Assembly (NCBI RefSeq): GCF_988243305.1
Contig: NZ_OZ547136.1
Direction: 5' to 3' (one strand)
DNA length: 64,000 nt
Shown: positions 3,017-3,284 of the stretch, piece after piece
Position numbering within the stretch: position 1 is the first letter of the stretch
Layout: each line of letters opens with the position of its first letter
Program-made: the position numbers and the translations under genes
The notes under the pieces: model-generated
The model's input: only the letters and a program-made list of their open reading frames with translations
What the model was told of the DNA's origin: nothing
The model's database searches: none

Positions 3017-3202
3017 AAATCGCGGAAGGGATGAAAAAAACAGCGCCTGACGGCGCTGTGTCTGGCATGCCTGCAATCCGGGAAACCGGACCAGGAAAAA
3101 ACTTGCAGGCCATAACAGTATCTACCCACTACCCACTGTTTTTACACCGATAATTTTTCCCCCACCTTTTTGCACTCATTCATATAAAAAATATATTTCC
3201 CC

Positions 3203-3218
3203 ACGAAAACGATTGCTT
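3203..3218. promoter_or_regulatory. Putative PurR box upstream of codB (ACGAAAACGATTGCTT)
   Basis: Resembles the PUR operator consensus; codBA is a known PurR-regulated operon. Confidence 0.4.
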
Positions 3219-3284
3219 TTTATCTTCAGATGAATAGAATGCGGCGGATTTTTTGGGTTTCAAACAGCAAAAAGGGGGAATTTC

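Follow-up and report, generated by a model that had tools for sequence, protein, structure and literature searches.

The stretch of DNA analysed here, hereafter the window, comprises 64,000 nucleotides of contig NZ_OZ547136.1 (RefSeq assembly GCF_988243305.1) and carries an insertion sequence (IS) shortly upstream of codB, the gene for cytosine permease. Does an element in this position change the control of codBA, or does its position have another explanation? A sequence-only reading had placed its right end about 160 bp upstream of codB, which is accurate, as the interval from the IS end at 3123 to codB, 3124-3284, measures 161 bp. The same reading had suggested that the insertion could displace activator sites. 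The evidence below makes it likely that the element, an IS621 placed by its bridge RNA in a REP target, is a bystander that is probably neutral for codBA.

The window reads, in order, prpE (stop at 1763), a REP pair, an element of 1279 bp, codB and codA. The genes prpE and codB and the recombinase gene of the IS are all on the plus strand. The element and the gene next to it are made up as follows.

1845-3123, plus strand: IS621 insertion sequence, 1279 bp counting one copy of the CT core.
1845-2035, plus strand: left non-coding end (LE), 191 bp, carrying a -10 element TATTAT at 1847-1852.
2036-3016, plus strand: IS621 recombinase gene, 326 aa, assigned by its Pfam domains.
3017-3123, plus strand: right non-coding end (RE), 107 bp, with a hairpin at 3040-3059, TTGCAG at 3103-3108 and ACAGTATCT at 3115-3123.
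3285-4544, plus strand: codB, cytosine permease, GTG start, followed by codA (Pfam PF02133, 6.3e-86; RefSeq).

The GTG start of codB at 3285 agrees with the RefSeq annotation of an identical sequence and with that of K-12.

The recombinase matches two Pfam domains, PF01548 DEDD_Tnp_IS110 (1.5e-24) and PF02371 Transposase_20 (2.4e-26), with scores of 87 and 92 bits, both above the Pfam cut-offs. In genomes that are 100% identical over window positions 1700-3400, RefSeq labels the coding sequence 'IS110-like element IS621 family transposase'. The element divides into 191, 981 and 107 bp, so that LE and RE together amount to 298 bp, and the published figures for IS621 are exactly these, 191 bp for the LE and 298 bp for the RE-LE (PMC11208160). 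A CT dinucleotide flanks the element on both sides (1843-1844 and 3122-3123); the empty site of K-12 has a single CT, and no longer target duplication surrounds the element. Taken together, the 191- and 107-bp ends, the DEDD/Tnp_20 recombinase, the CT cores and the target rebuilt below identify a canonical IS621, a member of the IS110 family with a bridge-RNA recombinase. Judged by its sequence, the element is thus a canonical IS621, apparently intact, in a perfect bridge-RNA-specified target. This identity had escaped the sequence-only reading, as had the exactness of the target in which the element sits.

The window copy shares its size, ends, recombinase and CT core with the IS621 described in two studies (Durrant et al. 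2024, PMC11208160; Hiraizumi et al. 2024, PMC11208158). The REP target ATCAGGCCTAC, the target loop AUCGGGCCU...UGC-GUAG and the sigma-70 promoter at the circle junction, with its -35 in the RE, are also the same as those published (PMC11208160), and nothing of substance differs. The copy at 1845-3123 is the sole one in the 64-kb window, where no further IS621 was found. Neither codB nor prpE nor the sequence of the insertion site turns up in the supplements of Durrant 2024. A GC-rich hairpin in the RE, at 3040-3059, is followed by T7 on the minus strand only, with no U-tract on the plus strand, and looks like a terminator for antisense transcription entering from the codB side.

What would have directed the element to this position is the bridge RNA that its LE is predicted to encode.

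1859-2035, plus strand: bridge RNA, 177 nt, assigned by loop motifs and fold, with a predicted 5' end.

A scan of 1700-3400 against Rfam matched a REP-derived family alone and left the LE without a hit at E<=1; since no Rfam model matches the LE, the published loop sequences were used for the assignment. The target-binding loop has its LTG, AUCGGGCCU, at 1908-1916 and UGC plus the RTG GUAG at 1932-1938 (GUAG itself at 1935-1938). The donor-binding loop has ACAGUAUC at 1981-1988, in the same sense as the left donor ACAGTATCT (3115-3123), and CAAG at 2020-2023, complementary to the right donor CTTG. The 177 nt preceding the recombinase ATG fold with a minimum free energy of -64.5 kcal/mol (z=-3.58), and none of 200 shuffled sequences folds as well. 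The 5' end would lie at 1859 because this position is 7 nt after the -10 element and because 191-177=14; the published bridge RNA consists of 104+73 nt (PMC11208160). The loop specificity has been published as ATCGGGCCTAC, with an rG:dT wobble at position 4 and UGC 5' of the RTG (PMC11208160), and the target loop of the window fits it, including the tolerated wobble at that position.

The target itself can be read from the two flanks of the element.

1769-1843, no strand assigned: REP pair (BIME-type extragenic palindromes) downstream of prpE, the last unit of which bears the IS621 target.
1836-1844, plus strand: ATCAGGCCT, the left half of the target with its CT core; joined to AC at 3124-3125 it rebuilds ATCAGGCCTAC.

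The REP pair is matched on both strands by the Rfam family naRNA4, which is REP-derived, at E=3.8e-8 and 2.5e-6, with scores below the gathering score. When the element is removed in silico, ATCAGGCCT is joined directly to AC, and the resulting 11-bp target is identical to the published one, ATCAGGCCTAC being the natural target of wild-type IS621 (PMC11208160). The empty site of K-12 MG1655 reads cttATCAGGCCTACccactg and contains ATCAGGCCTAC as a contiguous sequence at the tail of the last REP unit. On its 3' side the target is followed by CCA instead of GCA, so that the site lacks the optional extended RTG pairing described in PMC11208160.

The proposed mechanism is short. The bridge RNA of IS621 would pair with the 11-bp ATCAGGCCTAC in REP repeats, and integration would take place at the CT core. 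The landing place would have been the REP that separates prpE from codB and holds a perfect target, and the distance to codB (161 bp, or -124 in the numbering given below) would be fixed by the position of the REP. The specificity of the bridge RNA for the REP target therefore explains where the element inserted without any link to codB. Since a REP with a perfect 11-bp target is present here in genomes with an empty site, such as K-12, the proximity to codB needs no special explanation. A second perfect IS621 target in the window, at 56401-56411, is unoccupied and forms the tail of another REP element.

Whether an element that arrived in this way nevertheless disturbs codBA depends on what lies between its right end and the gene. 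Transcription of codBA is reported by Qi and Turnbough (1995) to start at G3247 or A3248, and all minus-numbering used here is based on these starts. In these terms the IS ends at -124, which corresponds to -117 in genomes without a 7-bp duplication. The control elements downstream of it are the following.

3182-3196, no strand assigned: NAC (nitrogen assimilation control) site, ATA-N9-TAT, -65 to -51, centred at -58/-59, assigned by its fit to the motif.
3203-3218, no strand assigned: PUR box (PurR operator), -44 to -29, overlapping the codBA -35 and reading ACGAAAACGATTGCTT.
3213-3254, plus strand: codBA promoter, with -35 TTGCTT at 3213-3218, a spacer of 16 bp, -10 TAGAAT at 3235-3240 and a T6 run at 3249-3254.

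After TAGAAT the sequence continues GCGGCG-G-A-TTTTTT-G. The T-run mediates switching between starts in a UTP-sensitive manner as well as reiterative transcription. This mechanism is cited for codBA (PMC12709180, PMC6245113). A PurR motif at codB-codA has been reported for K-12 by ChIP-chip (PMC3159470 Table 1), and positions 3203-3218 are identical to it at 16 of 16 bases. PurR motifs are reported at -10/-35 regions (PMC3159470). This identity makes 3203-3218 the genuine PUR box of codBA, more than a site that resembles one. The site pointed out in the sequence-only reading is consequently real, but to call it next to the IS end was generous, as 79 bp separate the two.

A NAC site of codBA is reported by Muse and colleagues (2003) to be centred at -59, which agrees with the ATA-N9-TAT at 3182-3196. 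The sequence there, ATATAAAAAATATAT, fits the Nac motif ATAagnaaaanttAT obtained by ChIP-exo, in a study that also found codB/codA to be up-regulated by Nac (PMC9853098). A sigma-70-like match, TTTGCA-17-TATATT at 3169-3197, overlaps the NAC site, ahead of the codBA promoter known from the literature, and probably reflects no more than the AT-richness of the NAC-site DNA. The same study reportedly obtained both NAC footprints and full NAC regulation of codBA with a fragment spanning -120 to +67, the upstream end of which nearly coincides with the insertion point.

Between the right end of the IS and codB lie the NAC site, the PUR box, the -35 and -10 elements and the T-run, without a single base difference from K-12. 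When six genomes are aligned, the 147 bp that separate the ACCCACT repeat from the GTG of codB are identical in the window, K-12, 55989, O121 and O111, and O26 has 1 SNP. The region thus shares with the canonical K-12 control region, known for PurR repression, NAC activation and UTP-sensitive switching, an identical PUR box, NAC motif, -35/-10 and GATTTTTTG. It differs from K-12 in a 7-bp duplication of ACCCACT at -123 to -110 and in its REP array, which is 1.3 kb further off and shorter (2 REPs vs 4). The DNA that the IS has shifted away consists of the REP array and prpE, which are what lies upstream in empty-site genomes. No mapped site of a codBA regulator was found at or upstream of the insertion point (-124/-117). 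The proposal that upstream activator sites had been displaced is hence unsupported: the mapped sites are all between the IS at -124 and codB and match K-12. As the mapped controls of codBA are unchanged, the effect on cytosine uptake is most likely none or very little, and we infer that the insertion is neutral for codBA expression. For codBA the insertion is accordingly likely to be of little consequence, its control region having been left intact.

An IS can also act on a neighbouring gene by supplying a promoter, and elements that activate neighbours through outward or hybrid promoters include IS1 and IS5 at bgl and ISAba1 upstream of beta-lactamase genes. The IS621 of the window resembles these activators in having an outward -35 at its end, with a gene of matching orientation downstream: TTGCAG at 3103-3108 in the RE points toward codB, and the native codBA start lies 139 bp further on. 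It differs from them in that the flank has no -10 at a spacing of 15-19 bp and that the native promoter and operators are intact. The flank hexamers at these spacings (ACCCAC, CCCACT, CCACTA, CACTAC and ACTACC) match TATAAT at 0-2 of 6 positions; at 17 bp the score is 0/6, and the best hexamer reaches 2/6. A scan for promoter consensus found no outward promoter in the RE. The candidate of a hybrid promoter made by the IS with its flank was rejected on these two grounds, in line with the judgement of the sequence-only reading that such a promoter was unlikely.

The same reading had noticed the outward TTGCAG, and its nature as a -35 element is borne out by joining RE to LE in silico. The junction gives TTGCAG-17 bp-TATTAT, with a -10 that matches at 5 of 6 positions, and a sigma-70 promoter rebuilt across the RE-LE core of the excised circle, with its -35 within the RE, is what has been described (PMC11208160). 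TTGCAG is, on this prediction, the -35 half of the circle-junction promoter, which is formed only on circularisation; the integrated TTGCAG meets no -10 in the chromosome, and the control elements between the IS and codB are unchanged. That TTGCAG works as a -35 in the circle junction and points to codB could still be held to favour constitutive codBA expression from a hybrid promoter with the flank DNA. The silent scan and the poor flank matches, together with the fact that such a transcript would still have to run through the NAC site and the PUR box, make this explanation barely credible.

Altered codBA expression could also come about without a hybrid promoter, by transcription reading through from the IS, by a change in the read-through from prpBCDE, or because the adjacent REP array is lost. 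In the first case, transcription from a weak promoter at the left junction between REP and IS would pass through the bridge RNA and the recombinase gene and then enter codBA. At this junction (1824-1852), the REP sequence CTGACG lies 17 bp upstream of the -10 TATTAT of the IS, a promoter-like arrangement with 9/12 matches, which might allow weak expression of the bridge RNA and the recombinase from the integrated copy. Such read-through would be helped by the shared plus orientation of prpE, the recombinase gene and codB, and a scan of the plus strand found no intrinsic terminator from the end of the recombinase gene (3016) to codB (3285). However, the hybrid -35 matches at just 4/6 positions, 2 such promoter-like sites were found where 1.5 are expected by chance, and the published account has the native promoter of the IS restored in the circle only (PMC11208160). 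Loss of the REP array, which has moved 1.3 kb away, could act through gyrase or nucleoid-protein binding, local topology, altered read-through out of prpBCDE or removal of an mRNA 3' stabiliser. Against all of these routes stand the intact state of every mapped codBA control site and the gain, retention and loss of the IS across lineages with no sign of fixation. The full NAC regulation reported by Muse and colleagues for the -120 to +67 fragment also speaks against them. A change of codBA expression by any of them is unlikely, and placement by the bridge RNA with little effect on codBA remains the preferred reading.

The occurrence of the element across genomes bears on both questions. Exact 40-mer junction queries were run against 5426 complete E. 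coli genomes; the genomes left over from the four states given here differ somewhere within the 40-mers.

217 genomes: IS with duplicated ACCCACT.
60 genomes: IS with single ACCCACT.
280 genomes: empty site with the duplication.
1646 genomes: empty site with single ACCCACT.
3124-3137, no strand assigned: the tandem of two ACCCACT copies in the window, present as one copy in K-12.

The site is occupied in 277 of the 5426 genomes by exact junction and in 305 by coverage. The ACCCACT duplication was considered as a product of the insertion and rejected, since it occurs with and without the IS in the four 40-mer queries; it is a polymorphism independent of the IS. The REP array from prpE to the target comprises 2 units in the window, 4 in K-12, O26, O111 and O121, and 6 in 55989. 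At least two structural haplotypes carry the IS, one with a 2-REP array and the duplication (the window) and one with a 6-REP array without it (55989), and the IS621 copies of the two differ by 1 nt. The two haplotypes suggest repeated use of the site, and a single insertion followed by recombination or by rearrangement of the REPs is a possible alternative source of both. The closest genome at the IS junction is that of strain S56, which is identical to the window over 1700-3400.

A further 172 of the 5426 genomes lack the IS and read cttatCAGTATCTacccactacccact at the site (exact 40-mer). In both genomes inspected, O26:H11 (locus 2490-2530) and O111:H- (locus 2493-2533), this scar is seen as cttatCAGTATCTacccact. 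In it the REP tail is joined to the final 8 bp of the IS621 RE, at a junction equivalent to window positions 1840/3119, and this structure matches the outcome of a 1278-bp deletion between CAG at 1838-1840 and CAG at 3116-3118. The scar would thus record the imprecise loss of an ancestral IS copy, by a mechanism that was probably a microhomology deletion. It destroys the 11-bp IS621 target.

These numbers could be taken to mean that the insertion is adaptive, having reached ~5% of genomes and two haplotypes by selection through altered cytosine or nitrogen metabolism. Indeed, the 277-305 occupied and 172 scarred genomes amount to ~3x the crude mean occupancy per target, but this crude expectation ignores shared ancestry and unequal use of targets. 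IS621-like DNA occurs at 13161 places in 2244 genomes, and in a published assay ~129 perfect targets of a single genome were used (PMC11208160); with so many places and targets, an occupancy of ~5% at one target is unremarkable. The perfect target alone explains the recurrence, the regulatory DNA is untouched, and a lasting benefit is made less likely by the disappearance of the IS from a large set of genomes. Selection for the insertion is therefore very unlikely. A combined scenario is also improbable, if somewhat less so. Weak transcription from the left junction or transcription from prpBCDE through the plus strand of the IS, which lacks a terminator, together with removal of the REP from -117, would alter basal or nitrogen- or purine-regulated cytosine uptake, and gain (two haplotypes) and loss (172 scars) would then reflect fluctuating selection.

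The element, its target rule and the regulation of codBA are already known. With placement by the bridge RNA as the preferred reading, the locus offers a clean natural example of bridge-RNA target choice, in which one REP site is seen empty, occupied and scarred across thousands of genomes. It also advises caution, in that the position of an IS that chooses its sequence should not be read as regulatory meaning.

Elsewhere in the window, lacY (9978-11231, minus strand) carries an in-frame stop at codon 306, which divides it into ORFs of 305 aa and 103 aa, and lacA (ORF 9301-9963) and lacZ appear intact. The window stems from a strain other than S56, which differs from it in this lacA/lacY region, its lacY being intact and lacA not being annotated.
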